Notes: generated from the sequence alone by a model not told the origin. A DNA stretch of 16,314 nt from a virus (IMGVR_UViG_2695420398_000002:1-16314), one strand, 5' to 3'; counted from the stretch's first letter, positions 1-9,984 are shown. Numbers and translations are program-made.

Positions 1-89
1 GATATCGGGGCACCCGGCAATTTCTGCAATCTGCGAAGCTGGCGATCGGTCAGACTTAAATGCCTGGCAACTTCAGTCTGCGTAGCCAC
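1..89 (-). CDS. Terminase small subunit (Nu1-like), N-terminal part only; gene continues past the window start
   Basis: Minus-strand frame opens just downstream of cosB with a GAGG/AGGAG Shine-Dalgarno and a GTG start at 89; translation (V)ATQTEVARHLSLTDRQLRRLQKLPGAPI looks like the N-terminal HTH of small terminases. Position immediately after cos matches lambda Nu1. Start codon is non-ATG, so uncertain. Confidence 0.4.
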   Translation of the reverse strand, partial: MATQTEVARHLSLTDRQLRRLQKLPGAPI

Positions 90-128
90 TCCTCACCTCG
101 CAAAAACTCTCACCTCACAATTAGCACA

Positions 129-237
129 AAACCGGTCATGTCCGGTTTACATGTCCATTTTTTGCGCATGTCCGGTTCACGGAAAGCCCGTTCTTATATT
201 TTTCATGTAGTTAACTTGCAGAGAAACCGGACATGGT
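129..237. repeat. cosB-like cluster of repeated CATGTCCGGTT elements (two direct copies at 137-147 and 167-177, one inverted at 226-237, plus degenerate copies at 129-140 and 150-158)
   Basis: Repeats read directly from the sequence; they lie between cosN and the Nu1-like start, where lambda has its R3/R2/R1 terminase-binding sites, and the inverted/direct arrangement resembles lambda R3 versus R2/R1. Confidence 0.5.
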
Positions 238-272
238 TCCCGGAAAATTTTCATAAATAGCGAAAACCCGCG

Positions 273-284
273 AGGTCGCCGCCC
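273..284. other. cos: cosN cohesive-end site; flanks 241-300 match lambda left-end and right-end sequence
   Basis: Plus 273-284 AGGTCGCCGCCC is the exact reverse complement of the lambda 12-nt cohesive end GGGCGGCGACCT; plus 241-272 is the complement of the lambda left-end sequence CGCGGGTTTTCGCTATTTATGAAAATTTTCCG and 285-297 matches the lambda right-end GACAGGTTACG (recalled from memory). Confidence 0.75.
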
Positions 285-695
285 CGTAACCTGTCGGATT
301 GCCGGAAAGGACCCGTCAGCCGTTCTGGTCGACTTCGTAATGGGATTTAATAGCTGAACGACAAAAGTCGTGCAACCACGGTTGCACAGACCTGAATACA
401 CGTCCTGTTTCTTCCACCCCCGCACAGGACTGGCGAGCATGAGGGACAAACCCGCGAATCATAAACGCGGTAAAAACCCGGTGTGCATCGTTTTTGATTA
501 TTCCCGCACACTCGCGCAGAGGAGTTCCCCGTCGGGCTACGGTCATGGTTAATGCGGGAATACGGCGACGATACAGCGCATGATGTGTCAGGCCTGAATA
601 CCTTTATCCGTTAAAAGGGATATCAGTTAAGTTATCCCGTGCAGGGTATAAGCCATTATCAAGCCCACCCGTAGATAGGCTTTGTAATGACATCT

Positions 696-1220
696 TCAAT
701 TAATCAGCAGTTCAGGCTGTGTCACCTGCAAAATGTATTCATGCTCGACAGCCAGGACACGCTTCTCTCTCTTCCGTTCGTTCATTAACCGACTGCCGAT
801 CGTACCTTTCAGCTTTGAGCGTGTTTCTTTGATGGCGTAGCGGTGCTGCATTTCTTCGCCAATTGCCATGCGGCGGCTCAGTTGCTCTGCCATCCAGTTG
901 AATGCTGCGATATAGCTCTCCTTGATTGCCGCAGCAGCTTTCCCGGTGAACCCCATCACAACCATGATCCAGCCATCTTTCGTCAGGCTGTACATCGGGC
1001 GAACCTTGCCCTGCTCATCGATATAATCAGCCGACGCAAAATTGCGTTGGCTAAACTCACGCGAGCAATCAGCCTTAACCTGCTCGATTTTCCTGAGAAC
1101 ATCACCGTGTCGCTTGCCGAAGTACTTGGCAATTTTTCTGGATGTGGTAACGACCTCTCCGTTTTTGGCTTGCACCATTTCTCGGAAGTCGAAGGCTGGA
1201 ATAACTGAATGATTATTCAT
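696..1220 (-). CDS. Phage regulatory protein, Rha family
   Basis: Translation contains a motif characteristic of the Phage_pRha domain (TTSRKIAKYFGKRHGDVLRKIE). ATG at 1220 is preceded by AAAGG; the longer ORF to 1256 begins with GTG. Confidence 0.7.
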   Translation of the reverse strand: MNNHSVIPAFDFREMVQAKNGEVVTTSRKIAKYFGKRHGDVLRKIEQVKADCSREFSQRNFASADYIDEQGKVRPMYSLTKDGWIMVVMGFTGKAAAAIKESYIAAFNWMAEQLSRRMAIGEEMQHRYAIKETRSKLKGTIGSRLMNERKREKRVLAVEHEYILQVTQPELLIN

Positions 1221-1363
1221 AGCGTCTTTACCTTTTAGAAAGTGAGCCTGTCTCACAGAAAAGCCGCCCGAGAGAGGTCGCCACCTATAACGGCATTTCT
1301 CAGGCTCGCTTACTGAAAGGCTCTCGTTAATATGCGCGTGAGATGCGCGTTTACTGCGGACAT

Positions 1364-3033: not shown

Positions 3034-4884
3034 TTATGCTGCCGGTGCATTTATCTCCAGCACCAGACTTTCTATCTCAACGCCATACGCTGCATTTTTT
3101 GTAACATCCGTCAGCGTCAGCGCATTCAGTCCCAGTGTCAGACTGTCTTTTATAACCTGGAATGCCGGGCCAGCCACTCCATTCAGTTTCGGAGTAACCG
3201 TGGCACTGCCGGCGGTGAACACCAGCTCCAGCGTCTGCCAGTCGTTACCGTAATCGCCGAACTCCCCCAGCTTCGTGTTTCCGGCTTTCCTGTGATGCAT
3301 CAGATTCACTCTGCCGTCAGTGGTCTGAGTGAAGTACGACATCAGGAACGGATTACCGGTACCCGTCATCGCCACACCATCAGGAACGGGAGCATCCGTA
3401 TACAGATAAATCCCCAGCCCGAACTGATTGTTGGTCAGTGCGCCTGACAGGCGGAACTTACAGGTCAGTCTGCCGCCCTGTGTCAGCAGGGTAATTGCGT
3501 CATCCACCGGATGCGTCAGGGACCAGGTTTTATTGCTCTGCTTGGTGATCTTAAATACACCATCTGACAACTGAATTCCGCCATCCTTAATGCTCCAGCC
3601 CTGCGCAGCAGCCTCTCCGGCTGCCGGCAGCAGGGAGATTGTGCGAACGGACGTATCTGCAGACGGACCCGATGGCGTGTTGCCGCCGGGCGAGGGTTTG
3701 ATTTCCGGTGCCTTACCACTGATGAAGGCTGAGGTGCGCCCGGCTGCGTTCAGAATAGCGGTTGCCAGACGATCCGGAATAATGCTCCTGCGCGCCCATG
3801 AACTGAAATGTGTCGGGCGGTTTGATGATACCTGGTTTCCATTCGTTCTCGATGCCGCACCGTAATATCCTGATGCCGGAATATCCGGATCTTCTGCCGG
3901 CGCGTTAGTGGCGGTATTGACGCCGTTACCGTCTGTCATGAAGGGCACAAAATAAACGCCCTCACTCTCCCTGTTTTTATACCCGCCGTACACGGTGTCG
4001 TACTGGGTAGCGTATGTATTTTTCCAGTAATACGTCGTGTCACCACAAATCCACGGCACATCTACAGCGCTGCCACCATGGCACTGCGCGTTAAACACGG
4101 AGAGGTCAGCACGAAACTGTGTCAGCATGGCTGTAAACAGCGCAGGTTGCTGTGCGTGGGTGGCGGCACTCATGTCAAACTCACCCTGCATCCAGCAGAC
4201 GGCCAGCAGAACGTTTTTGGGATTTTTCTGCAATGCCGCTTTTGTGCGGGAAATCAGATCCTGATATAACGGCTTGCCCACCCCCCAGCGTGCCGAATCC
4301 TGACTGGCCCCCGTGGACTCGCTGAATGTCCCCTCCGCGCCCTGGGTAAATGCCGAACCACCACGACAGCATGGTACCAGCAGGATCCCCGCGTTATTCG
4401 GGATATACGGGAGCAGTTTTTTGGCAATATGTAAACCCTGGCCGACACAGCCGTACTGCCCTTTGCTCAGGTCAGCCCTCGGATGATTCAGCGTACTCAT
4501 ATCCTGCACATCATGCAGACAGTGGTCAGCCGGAATAATATCGTTATATCTGCAGGCAGCCCCGCCCGGCGTCACTGTACTGCGGCGCGCCAGCTGTTTA
4601 ATGCGCGGATCCGGAGCATCGTATGAATCCGGCAGCGGAAGCCCTTCACCGTAAGCCATGGCATTGGACTGCCCGGCCAGTACGATGACGTAGTACCAAT
4701 CCGGCTCAGATGAAGGGCCGACCTGTGGCTCTCCTTCAATAGCCACCGCCTGCATCAGTGTGTACGGCGTAATGGCAACCGGTCCGCCGTATGGCTGCCA
4801 GCCCTCTTTCAGTTTGTGTGTCAGCTTTTCCGCAAGGTCTGACGGCGACGCCGCCCTGACAACATCGTAATGTTTAATCGACAT
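3034..4884 (-). CDS. nanS: Prophage sialate O-acetylesterase, NanS-p-like (DUF1737-like N-terminus plus SASA/SGNH esterase domain)
   Basis: 616-aa ORF with a GQSN esterase motif (YVIVLAGQSNAMAYGEG) and strong GGGAGAAA Shine-Dalgarno; sits between Q and the lysis genes, as NanS-p does in Stx and related prophages. Confidence 0.75.
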   Translation of the reverse strand: MSIKHYDVVRAASPSDLAEKLTHKLKEGWQPYGGPVAITPYTLMQAVAIEGEPQVGPSSEPDWYYVIVLAGQSNAMAYGEGLPLPDSYDAPDPRIKQLARRSTVTPGGAACRYNDIIPADHCLHDVQDMSTLNHPRADLSKGQYGCVGQGLHIAKKLLPYIPNNAGILLVPCCRGGSAFTQGAEGTFSESTGASQDSARWGVGKPLYQDLISRTKAALQKNPKNVLLAVCWMQGEFDMSAATHAQQPALFTAMLTQFRADLSVFNAQCHGGSAVDVPWICGDTTYYWKNTYATQYDTVYGGYKNRESEGVYFVPFMTDGNGVNTATNAPAEDPDIPASGYYGAASRTNGNQVSSNRPTHFSSWARRSIIPDRLATAILNAAGRTSAFISGKAPEIKPSPGGNTPSGPSADTSVRTISLLPAAGEAAAQGWSIKDGGIQLSDGVFKITKQSNKTWSLTHPVDDAITLLTQGGRLTCKFRLSGALTNNQFGLGIYLYTDAPVPDGVAMTGTGNPFLMSYFTQTTDGRVNLMHHRKAGNTKLGEFGDYGNDWQTLELVFTAGSATVTPKLNGVAGPAFQVIKDSLTLGLNALTLTDVTKNAAYGVEIESLVLEINAPAA

Positions 4885-8659: not shown

Positions 8660-9183
8660 GCAGCCCTCCTGACGCCCTGCCCGATCGCCATCAATGCCGC
8701 TTTGGATACGGTAGTAAACATCCGTCGAGGACTGATGAACGGTCGCCAAATCAGCAGCATGGAGCCTTTGCTGTTTCCCTTCTTCTCCAGCCCTGTCGAT
8801 GGTTCGATAAAATTAATCCGTCCATCAGTGATAATACGAACTTCGTCAACACTCTCCAGAGCCTTGCTGAACCATCCGACAGACATATCCTCTGGCACAA
8901 GCATCACTACCGTCTGTCGCTGTTGTATACACTGCTCAGCGGCTTTTTCCACCCACGGCCTGATATTGCTGTACGGTGGGTTATTCCAGATTGCACCGTG
9001 GCTTACCCACTCAGAATTGAGCGCGTCGTCGTCCTCAGTTAGCCAGTGAGCGCACAGAGCGTTTTTGTCGCTCGCTGCCGAATCCAGCCAGAATCCAAAC
9101 TCAATATCCAGTGCATCAAAAAGCCAAAGCGGCGTTTGCCAGCAGTCCTTGTCGTGTGCTGGCGTATTTGATTTGATAGTCAT
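8656..9183 (-). CDS. Phage DNA N6-adenine methyltransferase (Dam-like, NPPY motif)
   Basis: WQTP...LD.EF...LDSAAS...WNNPPYS motif set typical of phage Dam-family MTases; occupies the ninC/ninD position; start overlaps the ninB stop (ATGA). Confidence 0.8.
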
Positions 9184-9620
9184 GCAGCCCGATCTCCCCA
9201 TCGCGCTTTCCATTCGAGAGCCAGTCGCGCTTCGTCTGACCACTTAACGCCACGCTCTGTACCGAATGCCTGTATAAGCTCTAATAGCTCCGCAAATTCG
9301 CTTACACGCATCCTGCTGGTTGACTGGCCTATTACCACAAAGCCATTCCCGGCAAGGTTAGGAACAACATCCTGCTGCTTTAATGCTGCGGTAAACACAC
9401 ACTTCCAGCTTTCTGCATCCAGCCAGCGACCATGCCATTCAACCTGACGAGAGACGTCACCTAAGCAGGCCCATAGCTTCCTGTTTTGGTCTAAGCTGCG
9501 GTTGCGTTCCTGAATGGTTACTACGATTGGTTTGGTTGGGTCTGGAAGGATTTGCTGTACTGCGTGAATAGCGTTTTGCTGATGTGCCGGAGATCGAATT
9601 TCAAAGGTTAGTTTTTTCAT
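9180..9620 (-). CDS. ninB: NinB (recombination protein)
   Basis: MKKLTFEIRSPAHQQNAIHAVQQILPDPTKPIVV... near-identical to lambda NinB as recalled; GGGAGAGGGAAG Shine-Dalgarno before the ATG at 9620. Confidence 0.9.
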   Translation of the reverse strand: MKKLTFEIRSPAHQQNAIHAVQQILPDPTKPIVVTIQERNRSLDQNRKLWACLGDVSRQVEWHGRWLDAESWKCVFTAALKQQDVVPNLAGNGFVVIGQSTSRMRVSEFAELLELIQAFGTERGVKWSDEARLALEWKARWGDRAA

Positions 9621-9636
9621 GACTTCCCTCTCCCCC

Positions 9637-9668
9637 AAATAAAAAGGCCTGCGATTACCTGCAGGCCT
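9637..9668 (-). terminator. tR2-like Rho-independent terminator between ren and ninB
   Basis: Minus strand AGGCCTGC-N8-GCAGGCCT (8-bp stem) followed by TTTTTATTT; same location as lambda tR2. Confidence 0.65.
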
Positions 9669-9693
9669 GTGATTAGCTCAGTGATGTAGATGG

Positions 9694-9984
9694 TCATCTT
9701 TTAACTCCATATACCGCCAATATCCGTTTCATCGTGGCACTCTGGCGACACTCCTTAAAAATCAGGTTCGTGCTCATCTTTCCTTCCCGTTCTTCCTTGG
9801 TAGCAAACCGGTAATACACCGTTCGCCAGACCTTACCTTCGATAACCAGAAGACCTGCCCGTGCCATTTTAGCCGCGGCCTGATTTATGCTGGTTACTGT
9901 TGCGCCTGTTAGCGCGGCAACGTCCGGCGCACAGAAGCTATTATGCGTCCCCAGGTAATGAATAATTGCCTCTTTGCCCGTCAT
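9694..9984 (-). CDS. ren: Ren (Rex-exclusion resistance protein)
   Basis: 96 aa, near-identical to lambda Ren as recalled. Confidence 0.9.
   Translation of the reverse strand: MTGKEAIIHYLGTHNSFCAPDVAALTGATVTSINQAAAKMARAGLLVIEGKVWRTVYYRFATKEEREGKMSTNLIFKECRQSATMKRILAVYGVKR

Follow-up and report, generated by a model that had tools for sequence, protein, structure and literature searches.

Documented packaging specificities of lambda-like phages comprise those of lambda, 21, and N15 only (PMC4669245). According to the same source, N15 terminase packages lambda DNA despite very different R sites and recognition helices. The contacts of TerS with DNA were reported at bp 55–63 in lambda, where R3 spans bp 50–65, and at bp 48–60 in N15 (PMC9026076).

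The sequence analysed here, further referred to as the window, is the whole 16,314-nt stretch of viral DNA IMGVR_UViG_2695420398_000002:1-16314. It holds a lambdoid prophage in reverse orientation: along the minus strand, Q is followed by SASA esterase, holin, lysozyme, Rz, and Rha, and beyond these by cos and the start of TerS, which runs off the window start after 29 codons. Positions 130–314 very probably represent the complete cos site of a lambda-like prophage, in which copies of CATGTCCGGTT are the cosB R sites bound by TerS and form a separate recognition class. Positions within cos are counted on the minus strand, so that cosN occupies cos positions 1–12, i.e., window positions 284..273. 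The site and its surroundings contain the following features.

130–314, minus strand: cos site overall, consisting of cosQ, cosN, and cosB
308–314, minus strand: cosQ heptamer GGGTCCT (cos −30 to −24), identical in sequence and position in lambda and phage 21
273–284, minus strand: cosN GGGCGGCGACCT, the 12-nt cohesive-end sequence (cos 1–12), identical to lambda, 21, and DLP12
240–299, minus strand: 60-bp block 100% identical to lambda (cos −15 to +45; 60/60)
243–255: I2-like TATGAAAATTTTC, within the lambda-identical 60-bp block
225–235, minus strand: R3-equivalent CATGTCCGGTT, exact copy (cos 50–60; core TCCGGTT at 54–60)
201–213, plus strand: I1-equivalent IHF-like TTTCATGTAGTTA, 2 mismatches to WATCAANNNNTTR (cos 72–84, bottom strand)
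167–177, plus strand: R2-equivalent CATGTCCGGTT, exact copy, inverted with respect to R3 (cos 108–118; core AACCGGA at 108–114)
150–160, plus strand: degenerate copy CATGTCCATTT with two mismatches (cos 125–135), poorly conserved among E. coli versions
137–147, plus strand: R1-equivalent CATGTCCGGTT, exact copy in R2 orientation (cos 138–148)
130–140, minus strand: one-mismatch copy overlapping the R1-equivalent (cos 145–155), on the opposite strand to the 137–147 copy
96–99, minus strand: Shine-Dalgarno sequence GAGG ahead of the TerS GTG
87–89, minus strand: TerS GTG start, annotated identically by PGAP and in the PhiR12_1 record
1–99, minus strand: Shine-Dalgarno sequence, GTG, and first 29 TerS codons, cut by the window edge

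A preliminary description of this DNA stated that cosN and about 30 bp on each side match lambda and that the terminase-binding side diverges from it immediately. Both statements hold. Identity to lambda is 60/60 over positions 299–240, positions 300–301 are two mismatches, and positions 302–316, which span cosQ, are again identical (15/15). Past cos position 45 the identity falls to 40/150, which is the random level, with an abrupt break at 45/46. The cosN itself matches in 12 of 12 positions and is flanked by tacg and cgcg, i.e., by CG dinucleotides on both sides, and thereby has the sequence of a lambda-like cosN. The cosQ heptamer is kept in all 46 distinct versions of the region found among 80 E. 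coli loci in IMG/VR. The neighbouring TerL, located outside the window, is 66% identical to lambda gpA over its full length, which fits the identical cosN and cosQ. In relatives, the TerL genes encode GpA_ATPase and GpA_nuclease domains, so that a Nu1/A-type terminase lies adjacent to the site. As for lambda itself, it has TCCGGTT at cos 41–47 (loci L005 and L155), within the conserved segment and just before its own R3, at the place where the window has TCCGGGA. This motif is located exactly where the two sequences diverge, which is probably a coincidence.

The repeats cannot be attributed to chance. Allowing at most 1 mismatch, CATGTCCGGTT has 4 matches in the 16.3-kb window versus 0.22 expected, all of them within 106 bp, and none of 200 shuffles reaches this number. 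The earlier count of three or more copies in a direct and inverted arrangement is thus borne out, with three exact and two degenerate copies, except that the third copy occupies 225–235 instead of 226–237, which is 1–2 nt off. Since the 150–160 copy is poorly conserved, it is probably no functional site. The IHF-like core TAACTACATG lies between R3 and R2, as compared with the I1 core TAACTTAATG of lambda. A scan of the whole window with the IHF consensus yields 175 matches versus 180 expected, so the 2-mismatch site is not significant alone. In cos coordinates, the layouts of the window and lambda compare as follows.

R3: window 50–60, lambda 50–65
I1 (IHF): window 72–84, lambda 74–86
R2 (inverted): window 108–118, lambda 109–124
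Third copy or R1: window 138–148 plus the overlapping 145–155, lambda 152–167

This set of sites, in which the third is oriented like R2, has the anatomy of a complex cosB. The window thus shares with lambda the cosQ, the cosN, the stretch from cos −15 to +45, the R3/I1/R2 layout with inverted R2, and the TerS gene immediately downstream. It differs in the orientation of R1 and in the GTG start of TerS, as well as in the R sequence (CGTTTCC(G/T)TTCT in lambda, CATGTCCGGTT in the window) and the recognition helix (RTIQNWQE and RQLRRLQK, respectively).

Inverted copies of this kind might also form an RNA or DNA stem, or represent transcription-factor operators on the leader of the late operon, and have nothing to do with terminase. 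The arms 137–148 and 224–235 are indeed fully (100%) complementary, and in relatives R3 and R2 show concerted changes, as expected of a stem. However, the third copy has the R2 orientation, and the sites coincide with lambda R3, I1, and R2 within 1–2 bp, with an IHF consensus in between. Together with the observations on distant relatives, on TerS residue 20, and on satellites given below, this makes the stem or operator explanation improbable.

None of the R sequences of the described classes accounts for the cosB of the window. The preliminary description left room for the lambda R consensus matching the repeats once properly aligned; in ungapped matching, AGGCGTTTCCGTTCTT and TGTCGTTTCCTTTCTY reach at best 10/16 within the cosB, a value equalled by 44%–53% of random 150-bp window segments, and hence no match exceeds chance. 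Under the same ungapped matching, phage 21 R sites (TTTCATGTCGGRCCTT and AATCGTGTCGGTACTT) give at best 9–10/16 and N15/Monarch R3 of the GAGGTTGTTGTT type gives at best 8/12, both at chance level. Phage 21 shares the cosN exactly and has a complex cosB whose sites lie at the same positions. However, its R2/R1 sequence TTTCATGTCGGRCCTT, annotated in M81255, has only the hexamer CATGTC in common with the R sequence of the window, and the DNA-binding domain of its gp1 is lambda-like and falls outside the TerS family of the window. N15/Monarch differ from the window in both R sequence and DNA-binding domain, with the helix SVQAFDKW in place of RQLRRLQK. According to R sites and DNA-binding domain, the window therefore belongs to neither the lambda, nor the 21, nor the N15/Monarch specificity class.

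The site is assigned to a separate recognition class, as neither its R sequence nor the helix RQLRRLQK is shared with lambda, 21, or N15. Of the earlier proposal that packaging specificity of a different class, phage 21-like or another, was recombined onto a lambda cosN, one part stands, namely a non-lambda cosB and TerS domain on a lambda-identical cosQ and cosN. The phage 21 class was rejected because of differences in both the full R consensus and the DNA-binding domain. DLP12 of K-12 was also considered as a carrier and rejected, since it has a lambda-type cosB and NohD.

The full TerS protein comprises 169 aa (sequence taken from PhiR12_1 and WP_000235436.1). Its match to the Pfam family Phage_Nu1 (PF07471) covers aa 49–150 only (67.9 bits, cut-off 30), leaving the N-terminal 61 positions of the profile unmatched. 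BLASTP and tblastn align it with Nu1 over aa 73–164 only, i.e., in the C-terminal half, with 46% identity. In the phage collection, TerS proteins of lambda, 434, phi80, 21, N15, and Gifsy-1 likewise match its C-terminal part only, with phage 21 gp1 aligned to aa 64–166. That the Nu1-like N-terminus differs from lambda Nu1, as previously noted, is therefore confirmed by matches restricted to the C-terminal part. The N-terminal 55 residues constitute a family of their own, a winged-helix domain that shows only remote alignment to the lambda, 21, and N15 counterparts. In particular, hhalign places TerS residues 3–34 in register with residues 4–35 of lambda Nu1 (E-value 4.7e-5, probability 68%). 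TerS R16–K23 therefore corresponds to the Nu1 recognition helix R17–E24; this segment, RQLRRLQK, is encoded within the window.

The AlphaFold model of the TerS N-terminus contains a strand, helix 4–10, helix 15–22, a wing, and helix 38–54, with pLDDT of about 80. For two AlphaFold models, the best local Foldseek matches are MerR-type winged helix-turn-helix (HTH) structures with E-values of 0.4–3, which are not significant. The matches include the lambda TerS/RppC complex 6hn7_B (rmsd 2.5–2.6 Å over about 58 columns). Because of these E-values, the fold assignment rests on the match pattern and the hhalign register. A PDB sequence search with TerS gave no meaningful match, lambda Nu1 included.

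The GTG start of the terminase gene, suggested earlier, is supported by its position at 89..87 with GAGG ahead and by the same choice in PGAP and PhiR12_1. Homologues start with M/V-A-T-Q at the same place, some of them with ATG. The leader also contains a direct repeat, CTCACCTC(G/A)CAA, present twice (92–103 and 109–120) with a spacing of 17 bp. As TTG(T/C)GAGGTGAG on the terminase strand, it lies just upstream of the TerS GTG, so that the Shine-Dalgarno-like GAGGTGAG is duplicated. This repeat is kept in E. coli versions and absent from the PICI cos2 discussed below.

The decisive evidence comes from the comparison of relatives. Within E. coli, conservation follows the proposed sites. Across the 46 distinct versions, R3 is invariant (100%) and R2 and R1 are conserved at 90% or above, while the spacers vary. 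This pattern bears on whether the site could have decayed in a defective prophage into a relic without function. Such decay is common in this group: many E. coli carriers are degraded prophages, including one with truncated TerL and portal. However, a relic would hardly retain invariant R3 next to variable spacers, near-identical cos and TerS are found in the deposited phages PhiR12_1 to PhiR12_5, and the closest genome match to the window has intact TerS, TerL, and portal genes. A relic is accordingly improbable, and the functional reading as a TerS-bound cos is retained below.

More divergent relatives were gathered by a homologous-protein search together with the contigs that encode the proteins found; a scan of genome contigs with the single TerS protein had returned 4 loci only, two of them truncated and two with an N15-type domain. 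The enterobacterial set includes 10 loci, i.e., the window, PhiR12_1, and eight others (Klebsiella, a second E. coli lineage, three Salmonella lineages, Citrobacter, Enterobacter, and one uncultured source), whose DNA-binding domains are 58–75% identical to that of the window. TCCGGTT is located at cos 54–60 and AACCGGA at cos 108–114 in 9 of the 10 loci, and each is shifted by a single position in Klebsiella (55–61 and 109–115, respectively). A site with 0–1 mismatch to the IHF consensus is found at 72–84 in 6 of the eight other loci and at 73–85 in Klebsiella; the Enterobacter site is at cos 84–96 on the other strand, and the window and PhiR12_1 have weaker sites. These loci vary in their spacers and in the right half of cosN, and other genera have cosN variants of their own.

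PhiR12_1, Enterobacter, and Klebsiella have the third R copy and the short Salmonella versions lack it, which agrees with R1 being dispensable. The versions without it (L146, L148, L150, and L153, from Salmonella and related sources) have the TerS start at cos 145–159.

Pseudomonas and Aeromonas relatives, with DNA-binding domains 45–62% identical to that of the window, carry a tandem TTCCGGTTCCGGTT block 10–25 nt upstream of the TerS ATG. As these are direct copies only, they offer no inverted partner for a stem, which is a further argument against that explanation. The simple cosB of this type (L092–L124, Pseudomonas-type; L135–L139 and L007, the latter Aeromonas phiARM81ld) also has no IHF site. 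Thus, the contrast between the simple cosB of N15 and the complex cosB of Monarch recurs here, with simple Pseudomonas and Aeromonas members and complex enterobacterial ones. As in N15, the tandem site of the former is the only one; it occupies the R3 position and lies near the start of TerS.

In the opposite direction, a reciprocal scan of IMG/VR with the R3-spacer-R2 motif produced 120 occurrences, of which 106 lie 74–107 nt upstream of a TerS of the same family, and 13 further ones are PICI cos2 copies. Absence of the repeats from all other phages with this terminase had been named earlier as the result that would speak against the proposal; each of the homologous TerS genes examined has the repeats beside it.

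Site sequence and protein also vary together across genera. With Arg at TerS residue 20, 93 of 94 sites have G before TCCGG, those of the separate Pseudomonas-type lineage L124 among them, and with Asn, Asp, or Thr, all 85 sites have T there, although these counts represent few independent lineages, with at least 2 Arg/G origins. Such tight covariation between the residue and the adjacent base implies sequence-specific readout, and a stem or an operator of some other factor provides no reason for a site to follow a TerS residue. It also gives a testable recognition rule with a simple swap, namely TerS R20N combined with the change of ATGTCCGGTT to ATTTCCGGTT.

Packaging would then proceed much as in lambda. 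The winged helix-turn-helix domain (TerS residues 1–55) is predicted to bind R3 (50–60) and the inverted R2 (108–118), and IHF would bend DNA at the I1-like site (72–84), thereby joining the two. By analogy with lambda (PMC9026076, PMC4669245), a TerS dimer might bind R3 and R2 with its pair of winged HTH motifs across the bend induced by IHF. R3 of the window falls on the stretch contacted by TerS in lambda and N15. The third copy (138–148) would act as an accessory R1. Bound TerS would position and anchor TerL, the gpA orthologue, which would nick cosN to produce GGGCGGCGACCT cohesive ends, and cosQ would presumably serve termination, as it does in lambda. What the sequences show directly is the anatomy, the positional homology, the conservation, and the protein–DNA covariation, and we infer from lambda biology the binding itself, the IHF dependence, and the degree to which lambda, 21, and N15 terminases are discriminated against.

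A foreign cosB beside a lambda-like cutting site is the rule, and cosB together with the TerS DNA-binding domain travels as a cassette. The exchange is directly visible in phage 2B8, in N15-type fusions, and in the cosN variants. Window positions 279–700 match the right end of phage 2B8, Rha gene included, with 100% identity, and the 2B8 record ends at cosN; the left end of 2B8 consists of lambda cosB and Nu1. The conserved cos segment therefore contains the mosaic joint. As for the fusions, the same TerS C-terminal half is joined to an N15/Monarch-type domain in E. albertii, some E. coli, and some Klebsiella, and these carriers have a complex cosB of GGTTGTTGTT sites, i.e., the Monarch arrangement. 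In E. albertii (L010, 1160–1420; proteins P0056 and P0069), for example, GGTTGTTGTT forms R3, inverted R2, and R1, accompanied by an IHF-like site.

The 13 motif matches without an adjacent terminase belong to a small element that encodes an integrase, a primase, SSB, capsid and decoration proteins, and an Rpp-like protein of 144 aa. An 836-bp block of this element also occurs with 98.8% identity in E. coli CFT073 (NC_004431), inside the pathogenicity island EcCICFT073, a PICI next to phoQ. The island has two inverted cos sites on either side of rpp.

Satellite block in L157: 300–1135
Satellite block in L276 (E. coli CFT073 NC_004431): 9001–9835

The cos2 site of EcCICFT073 has cosQ, cosN, R3, I1, R2, and the first R1 copy of the window's class, and the sequence printed as 'CFT073 cos.2' in Fig. 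S5 is exactly this one (PMC6092414). Over cos2 positions 46–148, 101 of 103 nucleotides (98%) are identical to PhiR12_1 and 90 of 103 to the window. The similarity stops at position 148; beyond it lies the 3' terminus of rpp, a convergent gene, in place of the TerS leader. Functionally, cosB probably ends here as well, which favours the 138–148 copy as R1. A block copied without the TerS leader is also difficult to explain by a stem or operator that serves this leader. The cos1 site, which starts 102 bp upstream of the rpp ATG, is Rpp-dependent (PMC9026076). Its cosB differs from that of the window's class, and cos1-type sequence is absent from the window.

Given the same cosB in EcCICFT073, the cos of the window might itself be suspected to belong to a PICI satellite and not to a phage. 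This is most improbable: TerS follows at cos 196, the complete lambdoid late region with Rha, Rz, lysozyme, holin, and Q precedes, and the window has neither an rpp gene nor a second inverted cos. With TerS and a full phage late region in place, the site also does not correspond to an Rpp-dependent PICI cos.

PICI cosB sequences were described as 'completely divergent' from those of the helpers used (PMC6092414). In the same work, transfer by lambda and phi80 did not require cos2, deletion of cos2 raised lambda-mediated transfer, and plasmids with the identical cos2 were still transduced by lambda and phi80, at reduced frequency (PMC6092414). Our literature search found no paper linking cos2 to a phage class. 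We hypothesize that cos2 mimics the cosB of the window's phage class and thereby gives the island a second packaging route without Rpp. The identity of cos2 would offer an explanation for the two cos sites per island, which was left open in published work.

These transfer data also bear on how far the class discriminates. The sites may bind TerS without defining a separate specificity, so that lambda-type or other terminases use this cos about equally. Cross-packaging by N15 terminase (PMC4669245), the movement of plasmids with window-type cosB by lambda and phi80 (PMC6092414), and the lambda-identical cosN and cosQ are all in line with such promiscuity. On the other hand, transfer through cos2 is reduced, cos2 is not used when lambda or phi80 mobilises the island, and its removal increases transfer by lambda. 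Moreover, the R consensus and recognition helix have nothing specific in common with those of lambda, and the covariation of residue 20 with its neighbouring base implies sequence-specific readout. Use of the site by all these terminases alike is thus rather unlikely, yet clearly less so than the stem, relic, or satellite explanations. Since transduction of the cos2 plasmids is reduced and not abolished, discrimination of a separate recognition class may be partial.

A stronger version of the separate-class reading, for which the chances seem about even, adds that this is a fourth packaging-specificity class, that an Arg20–guanine contact helps to set its specificity, and that it is the natural helper target of EcCICFT073-type cos2. 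The putative fourth class is characterised as follows.

R sequence: (C)ATGTCCGGTT
TerS DNA-binding domain: starting with MATQ
Recognition helix: RQLRRLQK

If this is true, the islands would have two routes to capsids: cos1 with Rpp would redirect TerS of the lambda, phi80, and 21 types, and cos2 would mimic cosB directly. Which co-resident prophages, cos plasmids, and satellites can be mobilised by a phage depends on its packaging specificity, a point of relevance in polylysogenic pathogens.

Overall, the cos architecture is ordinary, and the cosB/TerS recognition class is, as far as we know, uncharacterised and is common in E. coli. The literature search found no description of this cosB class, with a prior mention in the 2015 Virology paper on N15 cosB being possible. 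Among 5426 complete E. coli genomes, the classes are distributed as follows.

Lambda class: 3986/5426
Window's class: 1159/5426
21 class: 763/5426
N15/Monarch class: 222/5426

According to these counts, the window's class is commoner than 21 and N15/Monarch, which are both characterised non-lambda classes. It also appears to be the class copied by the well-studied PICI EcCICFT073. In the phage collection, its only carriers are PhiR12_1 to PhiR12_5, whose deposited records are complete phage genomes listing K-12 or E. coli C as host.

Several further observations concern the late region next to cos. The gene of a Rha-family regulator (696–1256, minus strand) is located between the lysis genes and cos. 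A perfect 10-nt inverted repeat, TATTCCCGCA at 499–508 and TGCGGGAATA at 553–562, with a 44-nt gap, lies in the intergenic region upstream of cosQ. Downstream of the Q antiterminator, an ORF of 616 aa (3034–4884, minus strand) combines DUF1737, SASA esterase, and DUF6645, and occupies the slot where Stx phages carry toxin genes.
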